Part shown: positions 9,171 to 27,414 of the stretch, in pieces
Layout: each line of letters begins with the position of its first letter
Numbering within the stretch: position 1 is the stretch's first letter
NCBI GenBank assembly: GCA_019310125.1
Contig: JAFDEW010000004.1
Span: 1 to 35,389 of the forward strand
Direction of reading: 5' to 3'
Source: Deltaproteobacteria bacterium
Lineage (GTDB): Bacteria; Desulfobacterota; Desulfobacteria; Desulfobacterales; UBA11574
DNA: 35,389 bases
The notes under the pieces: generated by a model
Database searches by the model: none
Seen by the model: only the letters and a program-made list of their open reading frames with translations
What the model was told of the DNA's origin: nothing
Position numbers and translations under genes: made by a program

Positions 9171-9310
9171 TTTACAACCTGTAAAAAAGACTGACACCCA
9201 TTCATTCCAAATTTTAGTAGCTATATTTTTTAAAAACAAAAAAAACCTGCATTATATCAATTGGTTCAGGATATATCTCGATGGGGCTTTATTTTGGTAC
9301 GGTTGTTGCT
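9171..9310 (+). promoter_or_regulatory. sigma54 promoter unit 1 (upstream motif, IHF-like site, -24/-12)
   Basis: TTTACA-N3-TGTAAAAAAGACTGACA (17-mer at 9180-9196). TATCAATTGGTT at about 9255. TGGTACGGTTGTTGCT at 9295-9310. Confidence 0.75.
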
Positions 9311-9536
9311 TTTAAAGAAAGCGGGTGGCTTACCCCCGGATTCTAAATGAAACTAATTGTTCATAACACTCTCGAAAAAAATAAGAATTACAAAAACACA
9401 TTTCGAGCGGTATAACTTGCTAAAAACCGATGATCAGCTTCATGGAATGGGTAAAATTTCGACGGTTATAACTGATTTGCCGGGATAAAGGATCTTATTG
9501 ACCACGAAAGTCGTGGTCTGAAAGGAGGCAACTTCT

Positions 9537-10439
9537 ATGACAGAAGGAATTAAAATTCTGCTTGTGGATGACGAAAAACATTTTTTGGAATCATTGACCA
9601 AGCGTTTAAAGAGGAGAAAGCAATATGTCAAGACCGCCGAAAGCGGTTCGGAGGCTTTGGCACAGATGGAAAACGAGTCATTTGATGTGATAATACTCGA
9701 TGTCAAAATGCCGGGCATGAATGGGATTGAAGTCCTGCAGAAGATAAAACGTGGGTTTCCCGATACCGAAGTCATCATGCTTACGGGCCATGCCACAATA
9801 GAATCCGGGCTTGAGGGCGTCCGTTTCGGAGCCTTTGATTACCTGATGAAGCCCACTGATATCGAAATTCTGATGGCCAAACTGGAAGCGGCATACGAGC
9901 ATAAAACCGAAAGGGAACTTAAGATTCACGATGCTGAATTTGAACGCGATCGGGGATTAATCATCGAAGAGATAACCCTGAAAGACGTAATACAGCGCGA
10001 TATCCCAAATGTTTATGCCGATACCTCACTTGCAGATGCGGTGCGAACTTTTAAGAAAAAACCGGGCGCTCCGGTTGCGGAACAGCTCTATGTAATTAAT
10101 GATTCAGAGGAACTTGTTGGAAAAGTGAGACGCAAGCATATCCTCAGGGCGGTGATCCCCATATTTCAAAAAGAAAAAATCATTACCGGGGATGATCTTA
10201 CCTGGAATGAGTTTCTCAAAAAAGGAACAGGCCCTGTGGCCACTATGCCGGTAGGCGAAATTATGAATAAGGAAGTGAAATCTTTGGGCGCTGATGCACA
10301 GATTTTAGAGACGGTGAAGTTTATGATCGATAATAATTTGGCCGTACTTCCGGTTGTGGAAGGGAAAAAATTACTGGGAACCGTTCGGATCTATGATCTC
10401 CTGTTAGTAATCAACGACATTATGGCCGAAGCGCTATAG
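9537..10439 (+). CDS. Response regulator receiver + tandem CBS domain protein
   Basis: LLVDDE, DVKMPG, LTGH, YLMKP. C-terminal CBS pair (LYVIN..LVG, LPVVEGKKLLG). AGGAGG RBS. Confidence 0.9.
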   Translation: MTEGIKILLVDDEKHFLESLTKRLKRRKQYVKTAESGSEALAQMENESFDVIILDVKMPGMNGIEVLQKIKRGFPDTEVIMLTGHATIESGLEGVRFGAFDYLMKPTDIEILMAKLEAAYEHKTERELKIHDAEFERDRGLIIEEITLKDVIQRDIPNVYADTSLADAVRTFKKKPGAPVAEQLYVINDSEELVGKVRRKHILRAVIPIFQKEKIITGDDLTWNEFLKKGTGPVATMPVGEIMNKEVKSLGADAQILETVKFMIDNNLAVLPVVEGKKLLGTVRIYDLLLVINDIMAEAL

Positions 10440-10475
10440 CCAAACGCTTGAGGCTACGCCTAAAGGAGGTAACAC

Positions 10476-11102
10476 ATGGCTGTCATAACCATTTTTGGAT
10501 TATATGCTTCAAAAAAAAGGGGGTTCGGCAAGGCCCTTGCCAAGAAGTTGAACTATGACTACGCGGACAGGGAAATAATTCGCGAGCTGTCCCGTCGCGC
10601 AAATATATCTGAAGAATATGTGGAATCTTATGAAGATGGTCGATTCACAGGACTGATGGAGATTCTTTCCAAGACCGTCAGTATGAATTTCATCAAAAGG
10701 CTTATCGGTGATAGAGCAGGGTATATAGATTCCAAGATTTACTTCAAACTGCTGGAAGAAATTGTCATTTCTCTTGCCAAAAGGGACAATATTGTTATCG
10801 TTGGACGAGGAAGCCATTGTATACTTCAGGGATATGAAAACGCATATTTTATAAAGATTAAATGTGAATGGGAAGACAGGGTCAAAACCGCCGGTAAATT
10901 ACTATCATCGCGAGTTTGCGATGTAGAAGAGTATATCCTTGAACAGGATAAAAAGGAAAAGAAATTCATGGAGTATTTTTACAACGTTGACTGGTTAGAC
11001 CCTTCACTGTTCAGCCTGGAGATAAACCTGAGCCACGTGAGTAGGGAGGAAGCCATACAACAGGTCATTGATCTGATTTCAGCCAAAAAAAATGTTGCAT
11101 AA
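10476..11102 (+). CDS. Cytidylate kinase-like family protein
   Basis: AVITI..ALAKKLNYDYADREII, VIVGRGS, YFYNVDW.DPSLF.L.IN. The P-loop region is degenerate. AGGAGG RBS. Confidence 0.8.
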   Translation: MAVITIFGLYASKKRGFGKALAKKLNYDYADREIIRELSRRANISEEYVESYEDGRFTGLMEILSKTVSMNFIKRLIGDRAGYIDSKIYFKLLEEIVISLAKRDNIVIVGRGSHCILQGYENAYFIKIKCEWEDRVKTAGKLLSSRVCDVEEYILEQDKKEKKFMEYFYNVDWLDPSLFSLEINLSHVSREEAIQQVIDLISAKKNVA

Positions 11103-11140
11103 CGGCTTTGTCAAATCGCGGTGTATTGTTTATCTTTTTC

Positions 11141-11212
11141 TAACTTCTCAATAAGTTCTGGTGTGTTAAATAGTGATATTGAGCCGAATCCGTAATTTAT
11201 TGAGAAGTTACA
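11141..11212. repeat. Small inverted-repeat element
   Basis: TAACTTCTCAATAA ... TTATTGAGAAGTTA. Its right part recurs inverted at 33259-33282. Confidence 0.6.
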
Positions 11213-11332
11213 ATGAACGATTCGATTTTTTTAATAATTGCAATAAGGGATATGCTGTTGTAACATACAGGAAAAGATTGTCGGCGGTGCATGTTTTCAT
11301 TTTATATGTTGATTCATTTTAAGGAACAAAAT

Positions 11333-11602
11333 ATGAAAATTGAGATTAAGAAACCCACAGACAAGGATCTTGAAACTAAAGACATTTTATCCTGGCCCAT
11401 ATGGGAAAAAGAAATTTCTCGCTTCGACTGGCACTATGACAGTACCGAGGAATGCTATCTATTGGAAGGCAAAGTTATTGTTGAAACAAAAGATGGCAAG
11501 ACCGTGGAATTCGGGAAGGGAGATTTTGTTACATTCCCCAAAGGTCTGTCCTGTGTCTGGGATATTAAAGCGCCGGTAAAAAAGCATTACAACTTTAAAT
11601 AA
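11333..11602 (+). CDS. Cupin domain protein (Cupin_3/DUF861-like)
   Basis: WPIWEKE.S.FDWHY...EECYLLEG.V...FGKGDFVTFPKGLSCVWDI. Start moved to ATG 11333 after AAGGA. Confidence 0.88.
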   Translation: MKIEIKKPTDKDLETKDILSWPIWEKEISRFDWHYDSTEECYLLEGKVIVETKDGKTVEFGKGDFVTFPKGLSCVWDIKAPVKKHYNFK

Positions 11603-11737
11603 AATACACCCCGAATATTTCACATACCGAATTTGTCCGAACAAGTCATACTTCTTCCATCCTGACAGTTCATAAAAAAGCCACTTTTCTGACTTTTCCC
11701 CAGCCCATCAACAATTAATATCAGAAATCCTCACATC

Positions 11738-11876
11738 TTTACATACTGTAAAAAATCCTGACATTAATCTATTTTTGCAAACAAGTTTTATAATTCCCTT
11801 CTCCAACATAGTTACCTATATTTTCAATTAGTTATAATAAATTTTTTCGGCAACCTTTATTGGCATAGGTATTGCT
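11738..11876 (+). promoter_or_regulatory. sigma54 promoter unit 2
   Basis: TGTAAAAAATCCTGACA at 11747-11763. IHF-like TTTCAATTAGTTA at about 11822. TGGCATAGGTATTGCT at 11861-11876. Confidence 0.8.
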
Positions 11877-12097: not shown

Positions 12098-12478
12098 GTG
12101 GAAAAGAAAATCAAAATATTAGTAGCCGACCGGAATCAGCATGTCCGAGAATTTCTAAAGCGTGAATTGATGGCAGAGGGTTACAGGGTTCGGCTGGCAA
12201 AAAACGTCCAGGAAGTTCTTAAGAAGGTATATCATACCGAAACTCTGGATCTTTTAATCCTGGACCCGGACCTGCCCGGTACCGACAAATTGGCCTTATT
12301 AAAGAAGCTGCAGAATCGGATTCCGGCCCTGCCGGTGGTCGTTCACACGTATCTTGCAGATTATAACGACTACACCAATGAATTGAGTAAACTCGCTTTT
12401 GTGGAAAAGTGCGGCAGCAGTGTTGAAAACCTTAAAAAGATGGTCCATGAAATTTTGCGAAAACACAAAACAAGTTAA
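12098..12478 (+). CDS. Stand-alone atypical receiver-domain protein
   Basis: ILVADRN (DD pair altered), LILDPDLPG, VVHT, FVEK. Confidence 0.82.
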   Translation: MEKKIKILVADRNQHVREFLKRELMAEGYRVRLAKNVQEVLKKVYHTETLDLLILDPDLPGTDKLALLKKLQNRIPALPVVVHTYLADYNDYTNELSKLAFVEKCGSSVENLKKMVHEILRKHKTS

Positions 12479-12573
12479 CAAATTTTTTACTCGGATACTT
12501 AGCAGTGATATCGATTACAATTTGATATCATTTAAAGGTTTTTTAAATGAATTGCCTATAGAGGAATTTTGAC

Positions 12574-14289
12574 ATGACGACGGGTAGCCACAAAAAGGAC
12601 CCATATTATACCTCATTGACCAGAAGAATGATTTTAACCATCATCAGTGTATCATTTGCCCCCATGATCCTGGTCAGCGGCTCAATCCTATATCGGTTCC
12701 ACGTCTCTTATCATGAAAAAGTAGCGGCCCATTTAGAAGAACTGGTGAAAAAACATAAACAGAATATTGACTCTTTTTTAAATGAGAAACTGGGCGAGAT
12801 TCGTTTTCTGGTAAAAAATTCCGAATTTGAAAATCTGTGTAAAGAATCTTACCTGGAACAACAACTGGCAACCCTGCAGCAGGAACTTGATCCTGTATTT
12901 GTAGATCTTGGGATGGTCAATTCCAAAGGGATTCAAATTGCATATGCCGGTCCCTTTAAATTGGGAAAAGCCCAGTACTCGGAATCTGAATGGTTTAAAC
13001 AGGCCATCCAAAGCCAATATTTTATCAGTGACGTTTTCCTGGGCCTGCGGGGTTTGCCTCACTTTATCGTTACGGTGAGAAAAAGCTTCCACGGAGAATA
13101 CTGGATATTTAGAGCAACCATCGACTTTATGGCCTTTAACAATCTGGTGGAAAACGTTCGTATCGGCAAGACCGGATTTGCCTTTATCGTGAATAGAGAA
13201 GGAAAATGCCAGACCAAGCCATGTCTTGACATTATACCCAGTAAAACCAACTACATGAATTTATTAAAAAACGGAAACAGGGATATCGGCAAAATTTATA
13301 TCTTTGAGGCGAAGGACGATATTGGAAAGAAAAATATCTACACGTCGGCTTTTCTCAAAAGCGGTAACTGGATGCTCATATGTCAGCAAAATAAATCAGA
13401 TACCTATTCGGATCTTTACCGCGCTAAAAAGATTGCCGCTTTAATTTTTCTTTTAGGCGGGGTGGGGATTATCACCATGGCGATTTTATTATCCCGAAGA
13501 ATGGTGATCCATATTGCACAAGCAGATCGTGAAAAGGATATGATGAACCTGCAGGTAATCGAAACCGGAAAACTGGCAACCGTAGGTGAACTGGCTGCCG
13601 GTATCGCCCACGAAATCAATAACCCGGTTGCCATTATGGTTGAAGAAGCCGGCTGGATGGAAGATTTGCTGGAAGATGTAGAGGTTACGGAAAATGAAAA
13701 TTTGGAAGAATTCCAAAGAGCGTTGAGGCAGATCAACACCCAGGGAAAACGGTGCAAGGAAATTACCCATAAGTTGCTCAGTTTTGCCAGAAAAACAGAC
13801 TCAAGGATTCAGGTTGTCCTGATGAACGATCTGATCAAAGATGCGATCGGGCTTGCTGAACAAAGTGCCAAGTATAGTAAAATTACCATCAATACAAATT
13901 TTGAAGAAAACATACCTTTCATTCAGGCCTCTCAGACGGAAATTCAGCAAGTTTTTTTAAATCTTATTAATAATGCGGTTGACGCCATGGACAAAAAAGG
14001 CGGCGGCACCATAGACATAACCAGCCGTTTGGAGGGTAACGCCATTGTGATCGATTTTGCGGATAATGGCCCGGGCATCCACCGGAATAATCTTGCCAGA
14101 ATATTCGATCCCTTTTTTACAACCAAACCCGTGGGCAAAGGGACCGGATTAGGGTTGTCTATCTGTTACGGCATTATCAAAAAAATGGATGGGGAGATCC
14201 ATGTGCAAAGTGTTGTCGACGAGGGAACCACATTCAGTATCCGCATCCCCATTCCAAAAGATTTATTAGAGGAATCGTCAATGACTTGA
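12574..14289 (+). CDS. Membrane sensor histidine kinase, Cache-type periplasmic domain (HK1)
   Basis: Two TM segments. H-box AHEINNP, N-box [25 protein letters not shown]. Confidence 0.95.
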   Translation: MTTGSHKKDPYYTSLTRRMILTIISVSFAPMILVSGSILYRFHVSYHEKVAAHLEELVKKHKQNIDSFLNEKLGEIRFLVKNSEFENLCKESYLEQQLATLQQELDPVFVDLGMVNSKGIQIAYAGPFKLGKAQYSESEWFKQAIQSQYFISDVFLGLRGLPHFIVTVRKSFHGEYWIFRATIDFMAFNNLVENVRIGKTGFAFIVNREGKCQTKPCLDIIPSKTNYMNLLKNGNRDIGKIYIFEAKDDIGKKNIYTSAFLKSGNWMLICQQNKSDTYSDLYRAKKIAALIFLLGGVGIITMAILLSRRMVIHIAQADREKDMMNLQVIETGKLATVGELAAGIAHEINNPVAIMVEEAGWMEDLLEDVEVTENENLEEFQRALRQINTQGKRCKEITHKLLSFARKTDSRIQVVLMNDLIKDAIGLAEQSAKYSKITINTNFEENIPFIQASQTEIQQVFLNLINNAVDAMDKKGGGTIDITSRLEGNAIVIDFADNGPGIHRNNLARIFDPFFTTKPVGKGTGLGLSICYGIIKKMDGEIHVQSVVDEGTTFSIRIPIPKDLLEESSMT

Positions 14290-14343
14290 TTTAAAGCGGA
14301 TAACTTCTCAATCTTGATGAGGGGAAAAACCGGTAAATTCGCT

Positions 14344-14363
14344 ATTCCCCCGCAGGCGGGAAC
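14344..14363. repeat. REP-like short palindrome
   Basis: ATTCCCCCGCAGGCGGGAAC, similar in form to the REP arms near 29.25 kb. Confidence 0.4.
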
Positions 14364-14413
14364 CTAAAACAAATTTAGAACGAACAACCAGATTAGATAA
14401 AGGAGAACATAAT

Positions 14414-14845
14414 ATGGCTATTGCAAAAGTACTTTTAGTAGATGATGAAGCTCCATTTGTGGAGACCATGACCAAGCGGTTAACCAAAAGAGCCCTCGAT
14501 ATTATACCGGCGTTTAGCGGAAATGAGGCCCTGAAACGGCTAAAAGAAGACGACAAAATCGAAGTGGTTATACTCGATGTCAAGATGCCGGGCATGGATG
14601 GAATTGAAGCCCTCCAGGAAATCAGGAAGAGATATCCTCTGGTCGAGGTGATCATGCTCACCGGCCATGCCACCGTGGAATCCGCTATTGAAGGGATGAA
14701 GTGGGGCGCCTTTGATTACCTGATGAAACCCTGTGATATCGATCATCTTATTTCCAAGGTATCGGAGGCCGCTGCCAAAAAGAGACAGCATGAAAATAAA
14801 ATCATAGAAGCACGCATGAAGGAGATTACCGGCAGGATGGTCTAG
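14414..14845 (+). CDS. Stand-alone response regulator receiver protein
   Basis: LLVDDE, DVKMPG, LTGH, YLMKP. Short charged C-terminal helix. AGGAG RBS. Confidence 0.93.
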   Translation: MAIAKVLLVDDEAPFVETMTKRLTKRALDIIPAFSGNEALKRLKEDDKIEVVILDVKMPGMDGIEALQEIRKRYPLVEVIMLTGHATVESAIEGMKWGAFDYLMKPCDIDHLISKVSEAAAKKRQHENKIIEARMKEITGRMV

Positions 14846-14943
14846 AGCCGTGGAGCGAACCGACTTCCACGAATAGGTGATCGTTGGAATCCATTTTGAT
14901 CGCTCGGCTAGACTTATGTCTTGTCCGGTTCAGGTAAAGCATT

Positions 14944-15345
14944 ATGTCGGAAAATGAGAAAAAAAAGGCCGATAAAATAAAGCTTCTGCTTGTGGATGAT
15001 GAAAAAGGTTTTGCGAACATCATTGCCAAACGGATGTCTAAACGCGGCATTGATGTCACCGAGGCCTACAGCGGGACTGAAGCGTTACAGGCCATAAGAA
15101 AGGCAGATTTTGACGTGGCCGTCCTGGATCTGAAAATGGAAGATATGGATGGAATTGAAATTCTAAAAATTTTCAAGAAAATGGACCCGGATCTTGCCGT
15201 GATTATGCTGACCGGTCATGGATCCGAAGCCGCGGCCAAAGACGGCATTAAATTCGGAGCTTTTGATTATCTTACCAAACCCTGTGATCTTGAAGAACTT
15301 CTGGAAAAAATCAGGGAGGCATATCAGCAACCCAAACAGATTTGA
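14944..15345 (+). CDS. Stand-alone response regulator receiver protein
   Basis: LLVDDE, DLKMED, LTGH, YLTKP. Confidence 0.93.
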   Translation: MSENEKKKADKIKLLLVDDEKGFANIIAKRMSKRGIDVTEAYSGTEALQAIRKADFDVAVLDLKMEDMDGIEILKIFKKMDPDLAVIMLTGHGSEAAAKDGIKFGAFDYLTKPCDLEELLEKIREAYQQPKQI

Positions 15346-15356
15346 AAGGAGAAAAA

Positions 15357-16937
15357 ATGTTTTTCAAAAGCAAACAGTTCCAACTCGGTTTAGCATTGGC
15401 ACTCGGGATTATTGTTTTTTTATTGCCCAGACCTGAAGGAACCAAATTTAAGATCACCGGTGATCAGGGGCGATTAGTGTTGCAGGACGTAGGCCAGCAC
15501 TTTACCTTAGTTCCCGCTGAAAAGGAAAAGGCCAAAGAATATATCGTGGAAGCCATACATCCCAAAAGCCCTGAATGTACGGCTCAGTTTTTAAAGGATA
15601 CGGCTGCGAAGCTAAACACAGAAGGGGTTGAGGTCGATTATATCAACGGTCTTTCGCCCAGAGGAAAACGGTTTCTGGCAGTGCTGGTGGTGCTTATTTT
15701 TCTCTTTGTGGCCGAACCCATCCCCCTGGAAATTACCGCCATTTGTATCGGCGTGTTTTTGGTGATCATGGGAATCACCGATGTCAAAGGGGCCTGGGCC
15801 CCGTATATGCATCCGGTGGTGGTTTTTATCATGTGCTGTTTAATCTTTGCCATCTCCCTGGATAAAGCCGGGATTACAAAACGGCTCGGGCATTTTATCG
15901 TCAAAAAAGCAGGAACCAGTGTGACCAAGTTCACTTTTATTATTGCCATCAGTTTAGGCATATCTTCCTCTTTTATGCATGATGCCGCGGCATGTGCCAT
16001 TGGCATTATAACCATGCTTCCGTTGATGAAGGCTGCCGGCATTGAACCGCACACAAAAACGGCCAAATTTATGATGCTGTCTCTCCCCTTTGGTTGTTCC
16101 TGCGGCGGCATGGGATCGCTGATCGGCGGGGGACGCTGTATGGTGGCGGCCGCTTTTCTCAAGGAATTTACGGGACTTGAGATTAGCTTTTTCGAATGGA
16201 TAAAGTATGCCATGCCGGCGGCTATTATTTGCGTACCTATAGCAGTTTCCATCGTTTATTTTGTGTTTCGTCCCAATCCCAAGTACAAACTGCCTGTATT
16301 TGATGAGGAAATCGGTCCCTGGACCGCCCTGGAAAAAAAGACGCTCATTATCATCGGGCTGACATTTGCTTTTTGGTTAACCAAGGGATTCCATGGGATT
16401 CACTATTCGGTTACCGGAATGTTAGGTGTTACCTTCCTGGTCCTTTTCGGCATTTTGAAATGGGAACATATTAATGATAATCTGGAATGGGGAACCGCCC
16501 TCTTTATTTTTGGCGGCGGTATTTCCCTGGGTCTGGCCATGGGCTACTCGGGAGCGGCCTCTTATTTTGCCTACCTGTTTTTCCCTCTGGTTCAAGGCGG
16601 GGGCTGGTTGTTGCTGTTTGCCGGCGTAGCCGTTTTCGGGGCTCTGGTTACCAATGCCATGGCCAACGTGGCAGCAGCAGCTCTGATCTTGCCTATTGTG
16701 ATTCCAATGGCCAGGTTGGAGGGCGTCGATCCCACGGTTATCGCGCTGTGTCTTGGAATGGCCACTTCATTTGCCATGCTTTTGGTGATCGGTTGTCCAC
16801 CCAATGCCATTGCATACAGCTATCGATATTTTAAGGCTGCGGATCTCACTAGAGTGGGACTTGTTGCCACACCGATTTTGTTGTTTGTTTTAGTGGTAGT
16901 GGCATCCACATGGTGGAAAATATTGGGGCTGGTATAA
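15357..16937 (+). CDS. DASS/SLC13 family anion transporter (A)
   Basis: Multi-TM protein with EPIPLEIT, ISFFEW, LFIFGGG.SLG, GCPPNAIAY. Start moved to ATG 15357 after AAGGAG. Confidence 0.88.
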   Translation: MFFKSKQFQLGLALALGIIVFLLPRPEGTKFKITGDQGRLVLQDVGQHFTLVPAEKEKAKEYIVEAIHPKSPECTAQFLKDTAAKLNTEGVEVDYINGLSPRGKRFLAVLVVLIFLFVAEPIPLEITAICIGVFLVIMGITDVKGAWAPYMHPVVVFIMCCLIFAISLDKAGITKRLGHFIVKKAGTSVTKFTFIIAISLGISSSFMHDAAACAIGIITMLPLMKAAGIEPHTKTAKFMMLSLPFGCSCGGMGSLIGGGRCMVAAAFLKEFTGLEISFFEWIKYAMPAAIICVPIAVSIVYFVFRPNPKYKLPVFDEEIGPWTALEKKTLIIIGLTFAFWLTKGFHGIHYSVTGMLGVTFLVLFGILKWEHINDNLEWGTALFIFGGGISLGLAMGYSGAASYFAYLFFPLVQGGGWLLLFAGVAVFGALVTNAMANVAAAALILPIVIPMARLEGVDPTVIALCLGMATSFAMLLVIGCPPNAIAYSYRYFKAADLTRVGLVATPILLFVLVVVASTWWKILGLV

Positions 16938-17037
16938 TCCGATGAAGGAGTTCCTAACGTTGATTTTTTTAGAAAACTAACATATAATATGTTAAGATTT
17001 TAATTTGCAACCCGAAATTTTTAACAAAAAAACACAT

Positions 17038-18240: not shown

Positions 18241-18263
18241 GCTTATAAAGGAGAAAAAAAGAC

Positions 18264-18978: not shown

Positions 18979-19114
18979 TTTACACTGTGTAAATAATTCT
19001 GACATATATTTTTTTCCGGCAAACTTCCCGACACACCAATTTCCAAAATAATCCTATATTTTTAAAGAGTTATCCAATATTGCTTGTTGCTTATTTTTTG
19101 GCACATTCATTGCT
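18979..19114 (+). promoter_or_regulatory. sigma54 promoter unit 3
   Basis: TGTAAATAATTCTGACA at 18988-19004. TGGCACATTCATTGCT at 19099-19114. Confidence 0.82.
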
Positions 19115-19192: not shown

Positions 19193-19336
19193 ATTTCCAA
19201 AAGGATGTCCAAAAAAAACATTGATGTAACCAAAGCATATAGCGGCACTGAGGCTTTGCAGATGCTGAGAAAAGCGAATTTTGATGTGGTGGTCCTGGAT
19301 TTGAAAATACAGGAAGCTGTTCAATCAGGGAGGTGA
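19193..19336 (+). pseudogene. Receiver-domain remnant, paralog of 14944-15345 (43-aa ORF from ATG 19205)
   Basis: ISKRMSKKNIDVTKAYSGTEALQMLRKANFDVVVLDLK-IQEA aligns with IAKRMSKRGIDVTEAYSGTEALQAIRKADFDVAVLDLK...IREA. N-terminal and internal deletions. Confidence 0.75.
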
Positions 19337-19755
19337 TGGAGGTGAATAACTTCAATGTCCTGCTGGTCGATGATGAACTGGAATTTTTAGCGACTCTGGT
19401 AAAGCGGCTGACAAAAAGAGGACTCAATATTAGTACGGCAAAAAACGGTGAGGATGCGCTGAAAATAATCGGAGGAAAAGTGATTGATGTGGTGGTTCTG
19501 GATGTAAGGATGCCGGGTATTGGCGGCATACAGACACTAAGAGAAATCAAAAAGAAAGATCCTTTGATGGAAGTAATTATGCTGACCGGCCACGCCAGCG
19601 TAGAAGTGGCCATAGAAGGGATGGAGCTGGGCGCTTTTGATTATCTTATGAAGCCTGCTGATATTGATGAGCTATTTTACAAGCTCCAGGACGCGTTTAA
19701 GAAAAAAACAATTCAGCGAGAGAAAATCAAAAAGCTTGAGGAAATAATAAGATAG
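19333..19755 (+). CDS. Stand-alone response regulator receiver protein
   Basis: LLVDDE, DVRMPG, LTGH, YLMKP. Confidence 0.93.
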   Translation: MMEVNNFNVLLVDDELEFLATLVKRLTKRGLNISTAKNGEDALKIIGGKVIDVVVLDVRMPGIGGIQTLREIKKKDPLMEVIMLTGHASVEVAIEGMELGAFDYLMKPADIDELFYKLQDAFKKKTIQREKIKKLEEIIR

Positions 19756-19783
19756 TAAAAAAAACAAAAGGATCGGTATCGAA

Positions 19784-21082
19784 GTGAATTTTTTTAGACA
19801 GTGGGGTCAATTTATGATGATGGGCGCAAAAGCCCATGCACGGTGGGAGATCGGTGTATCCAATACTATTTTTAGTGATAAAAAACGGCTTTTAATACTC
19901 GGTTTGCTGACCATTCCCATAATATTGGGAGGGATTGCGTTTGCAGATCAGATCGGTGGGGCCCTGCCGAATTTATTGGGCGGCAAGAAAGCTTACAGCC
20001 CTGCTTTTTACAGCACCGGTATATTTATCGTCTCGATCCTTATCGGCTTGGGCGCAGGACTGATTACCGGCTGCATCGGTGCAGGCGGGGGTTTCATAAT
20101 TGCGCCTGCTTTGATGAGCGCGGGTGTTAAAGGTATATTAGCCGTGGGGACAGACCTGTTTCATATTTTTGCAAAGGCCATCATGGGAAGTGTCATTCAT
20201 CGGAAGCTGGGGAATGTGTCCGTTGGCCTTGCAGCGGTCTTTCTGATCGGCGCTATTTTAGGCGCAACCCTCGGCGGTGTCATCAACCGCGTACTTTATG
20301 AGATCAATCCGGTGCTCAGCGACGCATTTATCACAACAGTCTATTCCCTTATGCTGGGTTTTCTTGGTACTTACGCCATGACCGACTTTCTCAGGGCAAA
20401 AAAGGCTGAACGCGGGGACTTTCATGGAAAGGATGCCGATGGCGGAAAAATAGAAGGGGTACAAATGGGAAATCTTCCCAAAAAGCTTCAGGCCATCAAT
20501 ATTCCTCCCAAAGTTAAATTTGATTTTGATCTCACACCAACCGGAAGGAGTATTTCATGGATCTTTCTGGTCTTAAGCGGCGTGCTGGTCGGACTTGCGG
20601 CCGGTATTATGGGCGTTGGCGGCGGCTTTTTAACCTTCCCGATATTTGTCTATATCTTGGGTGTTTCCTCCATGACCACGGTAGGAACAGACATTTTTCA
20701 GATTGTATTTACCGCCGGCTATGCCTCAATCAGCCAATACGCGATTTACGGGTTTATTTTTTATACCCTGGCCATGGGTATGCTGCTGGGATCCCTGGTG
20801 GGTATTCAGATCGGTGCAATTGTTACAAAGGTCGTTCCCGGTATCACGATCCGCGGTTTCTACGCCATGGCTGTCCTGGCCGGTTTTCTAAATCGTATCT
20901 TTGCATTGCCGGCCAAGCTGGGCGCCATGGATGTTATTACAATATCAAAAGGCACAGGCGCTTTCTTAGAGTCCATTGGTGTCTGGGCCTTTTTCATCGT
21001 AATTTCCGGATTCGCGATCTGGGTAATCGGTACGTTCCTTATTAATATCCGGGTGCTTAAAGGTGAGGGGATTAAATCATGA
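19784..21082 (+). CDS. TauE/SafE (sulfite exporter-like) family membrane protein
   Basis: Two repeats: GCIGAGGGFII.P...AVGTD and GIMGVGGGFL.FP...TVGTD. Multi-TM. Confidence 0.9.
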   Translation: MNFFRQWGQFMMMGAKAHARWEIGVSNTIFSDKKRLLILGLLTIPIILGGIAFADQIGGALPNLLGGKKAYSPAFYSTGIFIVSILIGLGAGLITGCIGAGGGFIIAPALMSAGVKGILAVGTDLFHIFAKAIMGSVIHRKLGNVSVGLAAVFLIGAILGATLGGVINRVLYEINPVLSDAFITTVYSLMLGFLGTYAMTDFLRAKKAERGDFHGKDADGGKIEGVQMGNLPKKLQAINIPPKVKFDFDLTPTGRSISWIFLVLSGVLVGLAAGIMGVGGGFLTFPIFVYILGVSSMTTVGTDIFQIVFTAGYASISQYAIYGFIFYTLAMGMLLGSLVGIQIGAIVTKVVPGITIRGFYAMAVLAGFLNRIFALPAKLGAMDVITISKGTGAFLESIGVWAFFIVISGFAIWVIGTFLINIRVLKGEGIKS

Positions 21083-21765
21083 TCGAACATAAGAAAGAAT
21101 TTTATGGCGGTTTTGGATTACTAATCGGGTTTGCAGTCACATTGGGAATAATATTTTCGCCGATTTTCAAGGGCCAAAACGGTTTGCAATATTTAGACAG
21201 CCTGTACAACTCCATATCAAAAGGATCGGCCTATTACATTCAAACAGTGAAAAAAGAAACCGATACGTTTTCCGGAAAATCTGTTCAGGTGGTCATAGAC
21301 ATGGCAGACGAGGCCCGGGCACAACAGACAGCCTCTCTGTTTATGAAAGGCGGCGCACGGGTCAATGTATCCGGAACAGGTTTGAAGGTGGAGGGAGATT
21401 TGAGCAAGATCCTTTCAAACTGTCTCGCCGATGCAGACAGCATGTATATAAATGACGGTCAGACAATCTCTTCCAAATACGGATACAATGAAAGGCAAGT
21501 TCTGTTTAACTGGTGGAAAGCGCTCAAGTCCATGGACAAGGGCCTAAAAAAACAAAAGGAGTTCGAAGCAGCTAAAGTAGTATCTCAAGTTGTAAAAAAG
21601 GCGGTGGAATGTTCTTACAACTATTATAAGATCGAACCTCAGAAAATATCAGACCGGGTTGGAATTGTTATCTTTTCTCTGGTGTTTTATGTTGTCTATA
21701 CCCTCTGGTATGGTTTTTCAGTTATGTATATGTTTGAGGGGTGGGGGCTGAAGCTGGGGCACTAA
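21079..21765 (+). CDS. Hypothetical two-TM membrane protein, partner of the TauE-like protein
   Basis: N- and C-terminal TM segments around a soluble loop. ATGA overlap with the upstream stop. Confidence 0.8.
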   Translation: MIEHKKEFYGGFGLLIGFAVTLGIIFSPIFKGQNGLQYLDSLYNSISKGSAYYIQTVKKETDTFSGKSVQVVIDMADEARAQQTASLFMKGGARVNVSGTGLKVEGDLSKILSNCLADADSMYINDGQTISSKYGYNERQVLFNWWKALKSMDKGLKKQKEFEAAKVVSQVVKKAVECSYNYYKIEPQKISDRVGIVIFSLVFYVVYTLWYGFSVMYMFEGWGLKLGH

Positions 21766-21814
21766 ATACAATTCGTTGGCAATACCATAAAAAAAAACGC
21801 GGCTCTGCCGCTTT

Positions 21815-21864
21815 AAAAAGGCTGAAGGCAGGCTTGGGTTCCATCTTGCTTTTAGCCTTTTTTT
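21815..21864 (+). terminator. Possible intrinsic terminator
   Basis: AAAAAGGCTGAAGGCAGG ... CTTGCTTTTAGCCTTTTTTT stem followed by a T-run. Confidence 0.5.
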
Positions 21865-21964
21865 CTTATATCTTAACAGGAAAGATCGTAATTTTTCAAT
21901 AAATTATAGCGGATGCTGAATCTTAAGGTCCCGGCTTTAATTATTCTCGTAACAGGTTAATGTT

Positions 21965-24559
21965 ATGGGCAAACTGATTAATGGTTTTAAAAAGCTTTTT
22001 ATAAAGAAGCCAAAACTGGATGCTGCTGATGTCGAAGAGCTTCGAATTGCATTTAAGGACAGGTATCACAGTTTCAAGCTCCTATTAAATGCCAACAACA
22101 GAACGCTTGAAATTATGGCCGATATTGAGAGAGCCCTTCAGGGCAAACAACCCTTTGGCATGTCCTTTGTCAGGTCAAGTTGTACGGCTGTATCTGTCAA
22201 TATCTTTAATATGATAAAAAATATAGAAAAGCTCGCCCCGGGCAAGTACGGAAAGCTCAATGACCGGTTCAATAATATCCAGCAATATATAGACCTTTTG
22301 CTATCACAGAAGAAATCCATGGAAGATGAAAGACTTATTTTATCCCTGGATACTGTAAATAAGGAAATGACCGATCTTGTGGGAAGTAAGATGGCTAATT
22401 TAGGAGAAATAAAAAACAGGCTTCAGATCAAAGTTCCCGGAGGATTTGTTATTACAGCGGCCGCCTATGAAAGATTTATAAGGGAAAACGATTTGCAGGC
22501 GGAAATAGACAGGCGCTTTCAGTCCGCCGATGTGGACAATATGGAAAGACTTTACACCCTGAGTTCAGAAATTCAGCAGCTTATTATAGCATCCGTTATT
22601 CCGGATGATCTGGCCGTTTCTATTATGCAGGCATGGAAACACTTTACATCAGAAACCGGAGATCGGACAACTCTGGCCCTGCGAAGCAGCGCTCTGGGGG
22701 AAGATACACAGGAGAGCTCATTTGCGGGTCAATATAGGAGCGAATTAAACGTAAGTATTGAAAGCATTTTCCAGGCGTATAAGGAAGTTATTGCGAGTAA
22801 ATACTCTCTTCAGGCCGTCACCTACCGATTGAACAGGGGATTTAAGGATGAAGATATTTCCATGTGTGTGGGATGCATGGCCATGGTGGATGCTGTTGCG
22901 GGTGGTGTCATGTATTCACGTAATCCCGTTGATGTGAGGGATGACTCGATTTTTATAAACGCTGCATGGGGATTGCCCAAGTCTGTTGTTGACGGTAGTG
23001 ATGCCTGTGACCTTGTTGTTGTTTCAAGAAAAGCCCCCATGGAAATTATTCATGAAGATATAAAAACCAAGAAAAGAAAATTTATCTGCTTTCCCGAAGA
23101 AGGGGTGTGCCGGATGGAGTTGACCGGAAAAACCGGAAATCTGGCCGCCATTGATAAAAATCAGGCATTAGATTTGGCAAAACTTGCGGTTAAGATTGAA
23201 GAATATTATGCAGGGCCCCAGGACATTGAATGGGCTATTGCCCAGGATGGCGCGGTTTATATCTTGCAATGCCGGCCATTGCAGCAAACGGAGATGGAAA
23301 AAAGAGATATCCCTGAATCGGCGATGGAAGCAGATCGTGAGGTCGTGATTACCAGAGGGGGAGTTACCGCAAGCCGCGGCGCAGCCTTCGGGGCAGTTTA
23401 TGTGGTTGAAAAAGGAATAGATATGCTGCGATTTCCCGAGGGTGATATCCTTGTTACACGGCAGGCACTCCCCAGATGGGCCTCCCTCTTAAATCGATCC
23501 GCTGCCGTGGTTACTGAGCAGGGCGGTTTTGCAGGACACCTTGCCAACGTGGCAAGGGAGTTCGGAGTCCCGGCACTCTTTGGGGTGTCCGGTGCTGTAG
23601 ATCGTTTGAGCCATGGAGAAATGGTGACCGTTGATGCCGATTCTCGTGTAATATATCAGGGGAAAATCGAGTCATTGCTGATAAAATCCGAGAAAAAGAA
23701 AAACCTTATGCACGGAAGCCCGGTTTATGAAAATCTAAAACAGGTAAGCAGCCTGATTTTACCCTTAAACTTGCTCAACCCGGATTCTCCTGATTTTAAT
23801 CCGTCCAACTGCAAAACTTTACATGATATTACCCGGTTTATCCATGAAAAATCTGTTCAGGAGATGTTCAAATTTGGCAAGGAACACAATTTTTCCGAAA
23901 AATCAAGCAAACAACTTTATTATAATGTGCCGATGCAGTGGTGGGTATTAAATCTGGATGACGGATTTAAAGAAGAAGTGGAGGGAAAGTATGTTACACT
24001 CGAAAATATTGTCTCTATTCCCATGCTGGCCTTCTGGGACGGGTTCACGGCTATTCCCTGGGACGGCCCCCCCGCAATTGACGGCAAGGGACTCATATCT
24101 GTCATGTTTCAGTCAACTGCTAACAGGGCCTTAACCCCTAGTGTTCGTTCAGCTTATTCCGACCGCAACTATTTTATGATCTCGAAAAATTATTGCAGCT
24201 TAAGTTCCAGGCTCGGGTATCACTTTTCCATTATGGAGGCTCTGGTCAGTGAGCGATCCATTGAAAATTACACAAGCTTCCAATTTAAGGGAGGTGCTGC
24301 AGACTATCATAGACGGCTTAAACGAGTACATTTTATCGGAGAGATATTGGAAAAACATGGTTTCAGAGTCGAAATCAATGAGGACAATCTGATTGCCCGC
24401 GTGGAGGGTCATAAAATGGATTTTATGAAAAATTACCTTGCAATTCTGGGTTACCTGACGCTCCATACCCGTCAACTCGATATGATCATGGCCAATACTG
24501 CCGCCCTGAACCATTATCGATCAAAAATCGATAATGACATTCAGACAATTCTCAACTAA
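21965..24559 (+). CDS. PEP synthase/PPDK-like protein (ATP-grasp + mobile His domain + non-canonical C-terminus)
   Basis: VGSKMANLGE, VPGGF, LRSSA..ED...SFAGQY, QDIEW, LQCRPL. His-domain TEQGGFAGHLANVAREFGVP. The C-terminus (TLHDITRFIHE...) does not resemble the pyruvate TIM barrel. Confidence 0.88.
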   Translation: MGKLINGFKKLFIKKPKLDAADVEELRIAFKDRYHSFKLLLNANNRTLEIMADIERALQGKQPFGMSFVRSSCTAVSVNIFNMIKNIEKLAPGKYGKLNDRFNNIQQYIDLLLSQKKSMEDERLILSLDTVNKEMTDLVGSKMANLGEIKNRLQIKVPGGFVITAAAYERFIRENDLQAEIDRRFQSADVDNMERLYTLSSEIQQLIIASVIPDDLAVSIMQAWKHFTSETGDRTTLALRSSALGEDTQESSFAGQYRSELNVSIESIFQAYKEVIASKYSLQAVTYRLNRGFKDEDISMCVGCMAMVDAVAGGVMYSRNPVDVRDDSIFINAAWGLPKSVVDGSDACDLVVVSRKAPMEIIHEDIKTKKRKFICFPEEGVCRMELTGKTGNLAAIDKNQALDLAKLAVKIEEYYAGPQDIEWAIAQDGAVYILQCRPLQQTEMEKRDIPESAMEADREVVITRGGVTASRGAAFGAVYVVEKGIDMLRFPEGDILVTRQALPRWASLLNRSAAVVTEQGGFAGHLANVAREFGVPALFGVSGAVDRLSHGEMVTVDADSRVIYQGKIESLLIKSEKKKNLMHGSPVYENLKQVSSLILPLNLLNPDSPDFNPSNCKTLHDITRFIHEKSVQEMFKFGKEHNFSEKSSKQLYYNVPMQWWVLNLDDGFKEEVEGKYVTLENIVSIPMLAFWDGFTAIPWDGPPAIDGKGLISVMFQSTANRALTPSVRSAYSDRNYFMISKNYCSLSSRLGYHFSIMEALVSERSIENYTSFQFKGGAADYHRRLKRVHFIGEILEKHGFRVEINEDNLIARVEGHKMDFMKNYLAILGYLTLHTRQLDMIMANTAALNHYRSKIDNDIQTILN

Positions 24560-24606: not shown

Positions 24607-24743
24607 TTTGCAATGTGTAAATAATCCTGACAAACCCGCCACGCAAATCTTATCTTAAAAATTTTTCTTAATTATATAAATACCATTATATTAGCATATT
24701 AGATGTATTTTCCTTTGTTGCTATTTTTGGCATGCCGATTGCT
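24607..24743 (+). promoter_or_regulatory. sigma54 promoter unit 4
   Basis: TGTAAATAATCCTGACA at 24616-24632. TGGCATGCCGATTGCT at 24728-24743. Confidence 0.82.
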
Positions 24744-24782
24744 CTATTTAAAAGAGTCTAAAAGCATGCGTTCCGGGAGGAA

Positions 24783-26471
24783 ATGATGATGCCGGATCAT
24801 TTTTCAACACTAAGGAGAGCCATTCTTACCTGTATGGTCCTGGTTCCATTAATTCCATTCATCCTGGCTCTGGGCACCGGTTATTATTATTTCACGACGT
24901 CTCTTGAGGACAGTTCCATTGAAAGCATGAAAAGAATTGTCGAAGATCACCGGCATATGATCGAGTCTTTTCTCAAAGAGCGGAAAAATGATTTAGATTT
25001 TATTATTCATTCCTATACCTTCGAAAATCTCAGTCAATCTGAAAACCTTGAAACCGTCTTTAATAATTTACAGAAAAAATCCCCGGCGTTTTTTGATCTG
25101 GGAGTTTTCAACCCGTCCGGGGTGCATGTTGCTTATCACGGGCCTTACAGTTTAAAAGGCAAGATTTATAAAGATATGCAATGGTTCAAGGAAGTGATGA
25201 AACATGGATATTATATCAGCGATATTTTTTTAGGGTATCGGCAGATACCGCATTTTGTTATTGCGGTTACCCAGGAGGAGATGGGCAAAAAGTGGGTGCT
25301 TCGGACAACCATTGATACGGTTTCATTCAATAATATTGTAAAAAGTATCCGCATCGGTAAGACCGGAGAGGCCTACATTCTGAATGCAAACGGCTTACTT
25401 CAGACAGAACCGCGTTCCGGCGGAAAACTCATGGACAAAAATCCGCACAACATCAACTATCCGTCATCCGACACCCGCACCGAAATTTTTATAAATAACA
25501 ATGTTAAAGGTGAAAAATATCTATGCACGACCACCTGGCTGCAGAATAAAAAATGGCTGGTGGTGGTCAGACAGGAAAAAGCAGATGCATTCAAAGCACT
25601 TACTTCGGCCGCTTATTTGATTATTCTCATCATGGGGGTTGGCGGGTCGGCGATCACCGTGATTGCGTTTTACCTTACGAATCGTATTGTCGGGCGCATG
25701 GAAAAAATGGATGTTGAAAAGGACCGCTTGAACCAGCAGCTCATCGGAGCGAGTCGACTTGCAGAGCTGGGTGAAATGTCGGCGGGTTTTGCTCATGAGA
25801 TTAACAATCCCCTTCAGATCATCAAAACTGAGCAATCCCTGATCCAAATGACTTTAGAGGACATGAAGAAAGCAGGCCAGCTAAAGGAATCGGAGTCTCT
25901 GGCAGAACTTGAGGATTCCATGGATCAGATCAGACTTCAGATTTCCCGGTGTTCCGAGATTACCCGGGCAATTTTAAAATTGGGCCGGCAGGACGAGCCC
26001 AAACCTCAAGATATAACCCTTAAAGATTTCATTCCGGAAATCACCGGTATGGTGGCTCAAAAGGCCATTGTCCACGGAATTTCAATCGAGCAGGATATTG
26101 CCGAAAACACGGTTCGCATACATGGAGATCCCACCCAATTCCAGCAAGTTTTAGTGAATCTTTATAACAATGCAATAGATGCGATTCTCGAACGTCATGG
26201 AACTTCGGGCGGCAAACTGATTATCAAAGCCGGGCCAAAACAAAACAACCGGGTCGAAATTATGGTCATTGACAATGGCCAAGGAATAAGTCCCGAAAAT
26301 TTGAATAGAATTTTTTCACCGTTTTTTACAACCAAATCGGTTGGGAAAGGAACGGGCTTAGGTCTTTGGATATGTTACGGTATCATCGATAATATGCGCG
26401 GCAGTATGGAGGTCAGCAGTGACGTCGGTGTCGGAACCACCGTCACCATACTGCTACCGGCAGCAGTTTAA
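24783..26471 (+). CDS. Membrane sensor histidine kinase, Cache-type (HK2)
   Basis: Paralog of HK1. AHEINNP, NLYNNA, DNGQG, FFTTK, GTGLGL. GGAGG RBS. Confidence 0.95.
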   Translation: MMMPDHFSTLRRAILTCMVLVPLIPFILALGTGYYYFTTSLEDSSIESMKRIVEDHRHMIESFLKERKNDLDFIIHSYTFENLSQSENLETVFNNLQKKSPAFFDLGVFNPSGVHVAYHGPYSLKGKIYKDMQWFKEVMKHGYYISDIFLGYRQIPHFVIAVTQEEMGKKWVLRTTIDTVSFNNIVKSIRIGKTGEAYILNANGLLQTEPRSGGKLMDKNPHNINYPSSDTRTEIFINNNVKGEKYLCTTTWLQNKKWLVVVRQEKADAFKALTSAAYLIILIMGVGGSAITVIAFYLTNRIVGRMEKMDVEKDRLNQQLIGASRLAELGEMSAGFAHEINNPLQIIKTEQSLIQMTLEDMKKAGQLKESESLAELEDSMDQIRLQISRCSEITRAILKLGRQDEPKPQDITLKDFIPEITGMVAQKAIVHGISIEQDIAENTVRIHGDPTQFQQVLVNLYNNAIDAILERHGTSGGKLIIKAGPKQNNRVEIMVIDNGQGISPENLNRIFSPFFTTKSVGKGTGLGLWICYGIIDNMRGSMEVSSDVGVGTTVTILLPAAV

Positions 26472-26556
26472 ACTAAATGCAGGACTACTGACCTATTGTA
26501 GATTCAGATTCAACATATTTTAATGAAGAATTCACACCTTGAAGGCATATAAAAGA

Positions 26557-26676
26557 TGAACGTCGAACATCGAACATCGAACGTTGAACATCCAATAATG
26601 TATTCTACCATTTATAATAAAGACAAAGCGAAGCGCCTTCCACATTCGACGTTCGACGTTGAACGTTCGATGTTCA
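26557..26676. repeat. Inverted element built of 7-bp tandem units (CGAACAT/CGAACGT)
   Basis: GAACGTCGAACATCGAACATCGAACGTTGAACAT ... TTCGACGTTCGACGTTGAACGTTCGATGTTCA. Confidence 0.8.
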
Positions 26677-26784
26677 AATTGTTACATCTAAAATTACGAC
26701 TAACCCCCCATATTACGTTGAAATTATGTATACAGTCAGGAGTTCTGAAATAAGTCTAAACAATTCGTTAACAGGGAGTCAATT

Positions 26785-27231
26785 ATGAAAAAAATGAGGA
26801 TGATAATAGTGGATGATGAGGAAAGGTTTTTGTCAACCATGAAAAAATTGCTTACCAAAAAAGGGTATGATGTGGTGACCGCCTCAAGCGGGGCAGAGGC
26901 ACTGGAAATAATCGGTGCTCAAAATATCCATGTGGTGATCCTTGATGTTAAAATGCCGGGCATGGATGGGAATGAAACGTTAAGGGAAATTAAAAAGCGA
27001 TTTCCATTGACCGAGGTGATCATGCTCACCGGACACGCGACCATGGAATCCGCGGTGGAAGGCTTAAAATCAGGGGCCATGGATTATTTAATGAAGCCGG
27101 CGGATCTGGATGAAATCATCAAGAAAGCAGAGGATGCTTTCGCAAAAAGACAAAACCTGGAAGAAAAAATTCGTGTGGCCCGGATGCGGAAGATAGTGAA
27201 ATCGCCGAGTGAAATTATTCAGGATTCATAG
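26785..27231 (+). CDS. Stand-alone response regulator receiver protein
   Basis: IIVDDE, DVKMPG, LTGH, YLMKP. Confidence 0.93.
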   Translation: MKKMRMIIVDDEERFLSTMKKLLTKKGYDVVTASSGAEALEIIGAQNIHVVILDVKMPGMDGNETLREIKKRFPLTEVIMLTGHATMESAVEGLKSGAMDYLMKPADLDEIIKKAEDAFAKRQNLEEKIRVARMRKIVKSPSEIIQDS

Positions 27232-27279
27232 AACCTTTTTTCGCTTTTCAGCCAAGTATAGGGAACCCATTTTCTTTTT

Positions 27280-27414
27280 TTTACACTGTGTAAATAATCC
27301 TGACATATACATCCGCACATTCCACCGTTAAAATTTCTCTCAGTCAATTAATTATCAGTTATTTTAAATGGTTATCCAAGTTTGTTTATTGCTTTATCTG
27401 GCATAAAGATTGCT
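27280..27414 (+). promoter_or_regulatory. sigma54 promoter unit 5
   Basis: TGTAAATAATCCTGACA at 27289-27305. TGGCATAAAGATTGCT at 27399-27414. Confidence 0.82.

Follow-up and report, generated by a model that had tools for sequence, protein, structure and literature searches.

We describe five copies of a 26-bp element, each lying ahead of a sigma-54 promoter and a group of genes, in a 35,389-bp stretch of Desulfobacterales DNA (GenBank contig JAFDEW010000004.1, positions 1 to 35,389; hereafter the window). With a probability of about 0.7, judged from sequence comparison, these five sites are the enhancers of five sigma-54-dependent units within a regulon of at least 13 promoters activated by P0001, a response regulator encoded on another contig of the same genome. 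The source assembly (G000, in which the window is contig C13) comprises 535 contigs and 3.79 Mb at 44% GC and is 93% complete. Seen directly in the analysis were the shared architecture, with its genome-wide specificity, conservation, and fixed spacing, and the position of the activator gene beside one of the sites.

The enhancer-promoter architecture and its conservation

A first-pass annotation of the window had reported a 17-bp motif, TGTAAAWAAKHCTGACA, at five places. Exactly five copies were recovered, all on the forward strand (starting at 9180, 11747, 18988, 24616, and 27289), while 100 dinucleotide-preserving shuffles of the window yielded none, giving an expectation of 0 against the 5 observed. 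With the flanks read, every copy is the right-hand portion of a 26-bp element, TTTRCA-N3-TGTAAA-N5-CTGACA. The left half-site, which the annotation had also described, precedes all five copies, as TTTACA in four and TTTGCA in one (24607), and forms the 15-bp dyad TTTRCA-N3-TGTAAA. The TGT-N11-ACA site that had been proposed is thus present but incomplete as a description: the enhancer spans 26-27 bp, in its fuller form Y-TTTACA-N3-TGTAAAAAA-N2-YYGACA, and holds three half-sites whose centres are 9 and 11 bp apart, the third of which (CTGACA, CCGACA, TCGACA, or TTGACA) is more variable than the dyad.

Downstream of the enhancers, perfect TGG-N8-TTGC elements start at 9295, 11861, 19099, 24728, and 27399, which reproduces exactly the earlier distances of 115, 114, 111, 112, and 110 bp from the start of the 17-mer to the start of TGG. 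These promoters had been described as GG-N10-GC elements, a loose form that alone does not exceed chance (TGG-N8-TTGC with up to one mismatch gives 129 matches in the window against 120.7 expected), but all five fit the strict consensus TGGYAY-N5-TTGC, a form that the genome contains more often than base composition predicts (81 sites against about 21). Sequences resembling binding sites of integration host factor (IHF) had been placed about 40 bp upstream of several promoters. Using WATCAANNNNTTR, which we take to be the IHF consensus, we found a match with at most two mismatches starting 37-40 bp upstream of TGG at all five window promoters and at the same fixed position in 10 of 13 promoters across the genome. 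The genome carries one copy of rpoN (PF04552 match of 209.8 bits on contig C534) and 15 matches to the HU/IHF family PF00216, with HU and IHF counted together. The elements of the window, all on the forward strand, are as follows.

9171..9196 (+), enhancer (upstream activating sequence) 1, TTTACA-N3-TGTAAA-N5-CTGACA, weight-matrix score 39.9
9255..9267 (+), IHF-like site 1, TATCAATTGGTTC, one mismatch to WATCAANNNNTTR, 40 bp upstream of TGG
9295..9309 (+), sigma-54 -24/-12 element 1, TGGTACGGTTGTTGC, TGGYAY-N5-TTGC
11738..11763 (+), enhancer 2, found by 17-mer, 26-mer, and weight matrix
11822..11834 (+), IHF-like site 2, TTTCAATTAGTTA, consensus match
11861..11875 (+), sigma-54 -24/-12 element 2, TGGCATAGGTATTGC, TGGYAY-N5-TTGC
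18979..19004 (+), enhancer 3, found by 17-mer, 26-mer, and weight matrix
19060..19072 (+), IHF-like site 3, TTTTAAAGAGTTA, consensus match
19099..19113 (+), sigma-54 -24/-12 element 3, TGGCACATTCATTGC, TGGYAY-N5-TTGC
24607..24632 (+), enhancer 4, the TTTGCA variant, found by 17-mer, 26-mer, and weight matrix
24689..24701 (+), IHF-like site 4, TATTAGCATATTA, two mismatches
24728..24742 (+), sigma-54 -24/-12 element 4, TGGCATGCCGATTGC, TGGYAY-N5-TTGC
27280..27305 (+), enhancer 5, weight-matrix score 41.8, the highest of all
27362..27374 (+), IHF-like site 5, TTTTAAATGGTTA, two mismatches
27399..27413 (+), sigma-54 -24/-12 element 5, TGGCATAAAGATTGC, TGGYAY-N5-TTGC

The architecture recurs outside the window. 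The exact 26-mer occurs nine times in the genome, and a weight matrix built from 11 sites and scanned over the whole genome returned 13 sites with scores of 26.2-41.8, the next-best score being 18.4. All 13 are followed 100-125 bp downstream by TGGYAY-N5-TTGC, so the motif is not scattered at random away from sigma-54 sites, an outcome that the first-pass annotation had named as counting against its reading. The 13 units lie on seven contigs, five in the window and eight on six others; the regulon therefore reaches well beyond the island formed by the five window units. The earlier idea of a single regulon holds insofar as one enhancer type stands with a sigma-54 promoter at all five units, but not in its confinement to the island. 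Apart from such refinements, every prediction of the first-pass reading that could be computed was borne out.

Conservation singles out the same three elements. When DNA downstream of the activator gene (described below) was aligned across nine genera, only the enhancer, an IHF-like block (TTATCAA-N4-TTA), and the promoter (TGGCAY-N5-TTGC) were conserved, as expected if the three elements first proposed are the functional ones. Among 124 distinct sites, taken from the species-wide matches listed and informative only at positions outside the search pattern, a pyrimidine at -1 and an A-run after TGTAAA are kept, and nothing past the third half-site. TGG lies 120-124 bp from the enhancer start in 108 of these 124, the search having allowed 111-131 bp. 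With the gap left unconstrained at loci of relatives, 64 of 80 enhancer matches have a strict sigma-54 element within 40-315 bp, and in 61 of those 64 pairs the distance is 117-126 bp. A rare class with 99-100 bp is shorter by about two helical turns; such phasing is what looping from a fixed face of the helix predicts.

We also searched one genome from each of 185,579 species with a composite pattern (enhancer, a gap of 85-105, and promoter) and obtained at least 119 stretches. Among the matches listed, all but three carry Desulfobacterota-type labels, the exceptions being metagenome-assembled genomes (MAGs) labelled Nitrospinaceae, Gammaproteobacteria, and Pseudomonadota. The listed carriers include Desulfosarcina alkanivorans, D. 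widdelii, Desulfonema magnum, strain NaphS2, and Desulfoferrobacter, together with Syntrophobacteraceae, Desulfomonilaceae, Desulfobaccales, Desulfatiglandales, and Desulfovibrionaceae. Of 401 genomes sampled evenly across the phylum, 27 (G000 included) contain the pattern. A reversed-pattern control gave no match in 60 relatives and none in the 401 phylum genomes. The Desulfovibrionales comparison suggested by the first-pass annotation was only partly apt, since the nearest named relatives are Desulfobacterales, but the element does occur in Desulfovibrionaceae.

Two features of the window touch these elements. An 85-codon open reading frame (ORF) without a Pfam family (8948-9205, -) overlaps enhancer 1 on the other strand and is probably no gene. 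A sixth consensus sigma-54 element, TGGCACACCTATTGC, lies at 2890-2904 (-), about 270 bp upstream of a family-2 glycosyltransferase/chitin-synthase-like gene (1194-2621, -). Because no copy of the 26-bp enhancer accompanies it, this promoter is presumably served by another activator.

P0001 as the candidate activator, and the alternatives

The first-pass annotation had attributed all five units to one unidentified enhancer-binding protein. The architecture fits a single activator, but that protein need not stay nameless. By Pfam, the window encodes no sigma-54 activator, and of 31 PF00158 matches in the genome only one, P0001 (C396:2479-3915, -), is on a contig that also carries a site. P0001 has 478 residues and matches Response_reg (4e-31), Sigma54_activat (1.2e-74), AAA_lid_14, and HTH_8 (1.4e-11); its translation contains GAFTGA and GESGTGKE. 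It thus combines a receiver, an AAA+ domain with GAFTGA, and a C-terminal Fis-type helix-turn-helix (HTH), the composition of an NtrC-type bacterial enhancer-binding protein. About 10 bp separate its stop codon from the enhancer driving two Usp genes, and upstream of P0001 are a 4HB_MCP-type histidine kinase and the third DASS transporter gene of the genome. The relative G003 has the DNA corresponding to the window and to contigs C50, C91, C396, and C305 together in one contig, within a single stretch of 115 kb. Twelve enhancer-promoter units lie in this stretch, and the P0001 orthologue is its sole PF00158 gene; the only other activator gene of that contig is more than 100 kb off.

In 60 relatives, scored for an exact motif match and for an orthologue at E<=1e-140, the motif occurred in 34 and the orthologue in 36 (29 had both, 5 the motif alone, 7 the orthologue alone, and 19 neither). 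An exact motif lies just downstream of the orthologue, on the same strand, in 10 of the 14 same-genus genomes that have one. At 21 loci from other genera and families, an enhancer-promoter unit follows the orthologue within 300 bp in seven and at 0.7 kb in one more. Two Desulfovibrionaceae records (61-65% GC) have a 63%-identical orthologue that ends 10-25 bp before an enhancer. In Desulfovibrio sp. DV the unit adjoining the orthologue drives an operon of a receiver, a TauE protein, and a protein of no assigned family, the latter two being 54% and 37% identical to the corresponding pair in window unit 3. The closed 8-Mb genome of Desulfonema magnum has four exact and two one-mismatch sites; there, an enhancer precedes a DASS gene, and about 4 kb farther downstream, in the same orientation, comes a 75%-identical P0001 orthologue, across an unannotated gap of about 2 kb. 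That gene and site keep one arrangement in classes whose base composition differs so widely is hard to account for unless the two are functionally linked. Both this co-location and the co-occurrence make P0001 the best candidate for the enhancer's activator. A search with P0001 alone returned one close match, a Desulfobacterium MAG at 64%, and otherwise generic NtrC relatives at 39-48%.

Several observations weigh against this assignment. P0001 and the window are on different contigs, and their physical linkage rests on synteny with G003. Five of the 34 motif-bearing relatives (completeness 81-95%) have no orthologue at the threshold, seven of the 36 with an orthologue have no exact motif, and at 5 of the 21 distant loci no site scores above 18 in the flanking DNA examined. 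Related genomes are not independent, and the co-occurrence counts therefore overstate the support. Of the elements themselves, 16 of 80 enhancer matches have no strict sigma-54 element, and the IHF-like match is missing from its fixed position in 3 of 13 promoters. Three half-sites misfit a simple model of a dimer on a palindrome, and a fourth, which would allow two dimers, was sought across the 124 sites without any being conserved. In the published model of a DASS sulfate-transporter cluster, as far as the available text of PMC11887813 goes, cache kinases sense sulfate and the cluster's own "WalR type" regulators act on promoters; the same text calls the Desulfosarcina DASS transporters constitutively formed, a remark that cautions against a simple model of induction at low sulfate.

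Some of these points would fit a real sigma-54 regulon whose enhancer is bound by a different activator, either one of the roughly 30 others or one missing from the assembly, with P0001 merely adjoining one target. The number of PF00158 genes, the relatives with the motif and no orthologue, and the distant orthologue loci with no nearby site all lean that way, as does the report, in the accessible part of PMC3333781, that several D. vulgaris activators share targets and even motifs. We nevertheless regard it as unlikely. The order of stop codon and then enhancer persists in Desulfobacterales at 44% GC and in Desulfovibrionaceae at 61-65% GC alike, and no other PF00158 gene lies in the 115-kb stretch of G003 beside its 12 units. 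Besides, the HTH core (GNRSxAAKLLGLSRPTLHSKIEKY) hardly varies between orthologues whose remaining sequence is 60-96% identical, and P0001 has no close paralogue with a similar HTH in the genome, the next activator matching it at 40-45% over the whole protein and at no more than 50% within the HTH.

The geometry of the enhancer raises a second alternative, in which the 26-bp element is two overlapping operators, the dyad TTTACA-N3-TGTAAA serving one protein, and TGTAAA-N5-CTGACA, or the third half-site by itself, serving a second regulator such as a repressor or co-activator, so that several proteins would exert combinatorial control in place of a single activator. Such an arrangement would account for the uneven spacing of the half-sites, for their stopping at three, and for the greater variability of the third, and the regulon does encode many signalling proteins of unknown output. 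Weighed against this are the receiver, CBS, and cNMP (cyclic-nucleotide)-binding proteins of the island, which have no DNA-binding domain in Pfam, and the joint conservation of all three half-sites and the intervening A-tract across families; we judge a composite operator to be somewhat less probable even than a different activator. Finally, the idea that the copies are a chance repeat, or relics of duplicated promoter cassettes with no current common regulation, is strongly disfavoured: the promoters at window 9171, C91 3433, and C305 3576 are indeed alike beyond the three elements, which suggests that whole promoter regions were duplicated, but no match is expected by chance, most copies have only the three functional blocks in common, only those blocks are kept across genera with spacing held within a few bp, and the reversed-pattern control is empty.

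Each unit is made up of the enhancer, an IHF-like site, presumed to bend the DNA, some 38 bp before the -24 element, and the -24/-12 promoter about 120-124 bp past the enhancer start. Under the favoured assignment, P0001 would be phosphorylated on its receiver domain and, in that form, assemble on the enhancer; IHF-assisted DNA looping would then bring it to the closed sigma-54 holoenzyme, where promoter opening would be paid for with ATP. The steps of binding and looping, like the start site and the signal, are what we infer from the observed layout.

Genes of the island and of the wider regulon

The major ORFs between 9537 and 31825 are all on the forward strand and fall into five groups, with one enhancer-promoter unit ahead of each. 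Gene families were assigned by Pfam, and the grouping into units was deduced from common strand and short gaps.

9537..11602 (+), unit 1: receiver-CBS protein (9537-10439), cytidylate-kinase-like protein (10476-11102), cupin (11291-11602)
12098..18710 (+), unit 2, first part: short receiver (12098-12478), dCache histidine kinase (12574-14289), receivers (14414-14845, 14944-15345)
Unit 2, rest: DASS transporter (15342-16937), receiver-kinase hybrid (17005-18240), receiver (18264-18710)
19333..24559 (+), unit 3, first part: receiver (19333-19755), TauE/TSUP membrane protein (19784-21082)
Unit 3, rest: protein without a Pfam family (21079-21765), PPDK_N plus mobile-domain protein of 864 residues (21965-24559)
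24783..27231 (+), unit 4: dCache histidine kinase (24783-26471), receiver (26785-27231)
27512..31825 (+), unit 5: second DASS transporter (27512-29146), dCache histidine kinase (29610-31205), receiver (31292-31825)

By Pfam, the window holds two DASS transporters, three dCache kinases, one hybrid kinase, seven stand-alone receivers, and one receiver-CBS protein, and none of its eight receiver proteins has a DNA-binding domain. The unit-2 DASS protein is 74-99% identical to proteins at 80 Desulfobacterales/Desulfatiglandales loci, 44 of which have at least one site near the DASS orthologue; the three DASS paralogues of the genome share about 26% identity among themselves. Outside the window, the units of the genome are the following.

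C50: tandem-Usp protein and ADP-forming acetyl-CoA synthetase; divergently, cytidylate-kinase-like protein and pyruvate phosphate dikinase (PPDK)
C91: cNMP-binding protein, CBS, TauE, Usp, and AAA_33 kinase; divergently, cytidylate-kinase-like protein
C396: two Usp genes
C305: cNMP-binding protein
C463: formate/nitrite-family (FNT) channel
C455: protein without a Pfam family

Divergent enhancer pairs drive opposite operons; the two members are separated by about 75-80 bp in C91 and in several relatives, and by about 730 bp in C50 (C50, locus L001, 3432-3457 / 4184-4209; C91, locus L002, about 3326-3355 / 3433-3458; G003:C1 267122-267147 / 267197-267222). The protein of 864 residues in unit 3 has a PPDK_N ATP-binding domain and a phosphoenolpyruvate (PEP)-utilizer mobile domain, with no PEP/pyruvate-binding C-terminal domain in Pfam; a complete PPDK of 916 residues follows another unit, on C50.

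In a set of 73 Desulfobacterota units, the first downstream gene encodes Usp (9), CBS (8), a receiver-CBS protein (1), a stand-alone receiver (9), a dCache kinase (9), TauE (6), DASS (5), ATP sulfurylase (2), AMPK1_CBM/CBM_48 (2), one of seven other families (1 each), or a protein without a Pfam family (15). ATP sulfurylase stands behind a unit in two MAGs, and small AMPK-beta-like CBM_48 proteins do so in two MAGs (L243:7328-8000, L247:3569-4033, L229:534-926, and L236:6097-6393 for these ATP sulfurylase and CBM_48 loci). The CBM_48 proteins, together with the many CBS proteins, hint at an AMPK-like theme of energy sensing.

Several short first genes (12098-12478; L278:327-794; L279:5277-5726; and others) match only about the first 75-90 of the 111 positions of the receiver model, with weak E-values, and their products seem to form a conserved family of receivers that are truncated or degenerate. 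Within the 220-nt leader of unit 3, an ORF of 43 codons (19205-19336, +) resembles the start of a receiver domain (AYSGTEALQMLRKANFDVVVLDLKI) and could represent a degraded copy of the short receiver gene found at the head of other units; this stretch is absent from alignments of more than 400 bp to the relative G003. An Rfam scan of the window at gathering thresholds gave no match, so the long leaders are not known riboswitches or small RNAs.

Sigma-70 promoter and terminator predictions within 9000-28999 (47 against 40.7 and 28 against 21.9 in shuffles, respectively) were not above chance and do not delimit the units. Contigs from four RNA libraries (nine runs listed), at 92-99% likeness, cover genes in the same interval and, being contigs, carry no information on start site, strand, or expression level. 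The spacers at 26552-26675 and 11138-11213 contain hairpin-forming repeats, one with GAACATC/GAACGTC-type units and inverted arms of 24-32 nt and the other with an inverted repeat of 20 nt. Both appear in the RNA-library contigs with depth spikes, many loose ends, and an opposite-strand joint at 11211/26588, signs of either a short repeated element or a small RNA present in abundance.

From these gene contents, P0001 would control DASS/TauE anion transporters, dCache kinases, stand-alone receivers, and CBS, Usp, cNMP-binding, and cytidylate-kinase-like proteins, and elsewhere in the genome also PPDK, ADP-forming acetyl-CoA synthetase, and the FNT channel. Most likely, the regulon tunes the uptake of sulfate (an oxyanion) and the energy or stress state of the cell while feeding back on its own signalling proteins. 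A bolder proposal, which we hold only tentatively and consider doubtful as it stands, is that this is the master sulfate regulon of sulfate-reducing Desulfobacterota, in which one NtrC-type activator integrates several dCache (sulfate-sensing) kinases and a 4HB-type kinase through stand-alone receivers arranged in a branched network and switches on DASS/TauE sulfate-uptake systems, in some lineages ATP sulfurylase, and Usp/CBS energy-state proteins. If so, the current model of how marine sulfate reducers regulate sulfate uptake, which lacks a DNA-binding output, would gain one.

A common sigma-54 enhancer with a named candidate activator makes the control of sulfate uptake in dissimilatory sulfate reducers directly testable. 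The element occurs in cultured strains, and its conservation extends from Desulfobacterales to Desulfovibrionaceae. Because the reversed-pattern control is empty in the 401 phylum genomes, the composite pattern can also serve as a simple signature for predicting the regulon in metagenome-assembled sulfate reducers.

Comparison with known sigma-54 and sulfate-transport systems

NtrC-type activators drive enhancer-dependent sigma-54 promoters such as glnAp2 (NtrC), nifH (NifA, bound at TGT-N10-ACA), and dctA (DctD), often with the assistance of IHF. The system described here resembles these in its -24/-12 promoter, its dyad about 100-130 bp upstream, the IHF-like site between them, and a candidate activator built from a receiver, an AAA+ domain with GAFTGA, and a Fis-type HTH. 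Unlike them, it uses a different motif sequence with three half-sites, has a single enhancer copy per promoter in place of tandem dimer sites, and forms a large regulon (13 promoters) devoted mostly to signalling proteins and anion transporters.

Closer counterparts come from Desulfovibrio vulgaris Hildenborough, whose paralogous activators DVU0539 and DVU0946, as described in the available portions of PMC3333781 and PMC4641369, have a common validated motif, regulate themselves, and target a Usp operon and pairs of membrane and hypothetical genes. The same sources report their orthologues and motif in environmental Desulfovibrio and in other sulfate reducers, including a Desulfobacterales species. 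Fitness effects specific to molybdate, a sulfate analogue, are reported in the accessible text of PMC10102598 for DVU0540:DVU0539 and DVU0542:DVU0545. Like these activators, P0001 is a sigma-54 response regulator encoded beside a kinase, with Usp genes and membrane/hypothetical pairs among its predicted targets and a site next to its own gene. They differ in that the label given to the DVU0539/DVU0946 system in those portions is lactate metabolism and transport, not sulfate uptake, and in the far greater size of the regulon here, which counts three DASS genes. On balance, P0001 is probably the counterpart of DVU0539/DVU0946, a likeness drawn from published descriptions. The available text of PMC4641369, PMC3333781, PMC6456213, and PMC4045070 prints no letters for the motif of these two activators. 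A TGTAAA string in PMC4045070 was considered and dropped: it belongs to the site of the lpxC regulator, a different motif.

DVU3305, the general-stress sigma-54 response regulator of D. vulgaris, with Usp-type targets next to its own operon in the excerpted PMC3333781, was also considered as a counterpart of P0001. It is partnered by a Lon-protease response regulator, DVU3303, whereas none is seen beside P0001, and its reported orthologues are in Thermodesulfovibrio, Thioalkalivibrio, and Dechloromonas, in contrast to the Desulfobacterota-type spread found here among the matches listed. On both grounds, it was set aside.

DASS/TauE-type anion transporters have been proposed to carry sulfate, in accessible literature that itself infers the transport. 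In Desulfobacterium autotrophicum, clustered DASS genes change their expression with sulfate level, according to the available part of PMC5840216. Our literature search found no paper tying sigma-54 to the DASS cluster, although supplements or RegPrecise may hold the motif, and in the text of PMC11887813 at hand sigma54 occurs once, in another context and not for that cluster.

The system closest in gene content is the DASS sulfate-transporter cluster conserved in Desulfobacteraceae, which the same text describes as spanning 30.5 kb with many two-component systems and CBS proteins. Unlike the regulators of the model proposed for it, the receivers of the window have no DNA-binding domain in Pfam, and its promoters are of the sigma-54 type with a common enhancer. 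Like that cluster (about 30 kb), the window unites, in a single conserved group of genes, two DASS transporters and several cache kinases with numerous response regulators and with CBS proteins, and the same enhancer stands before DASS genes in Desulfosarcina alkanivorans and Desulfonema magnum.

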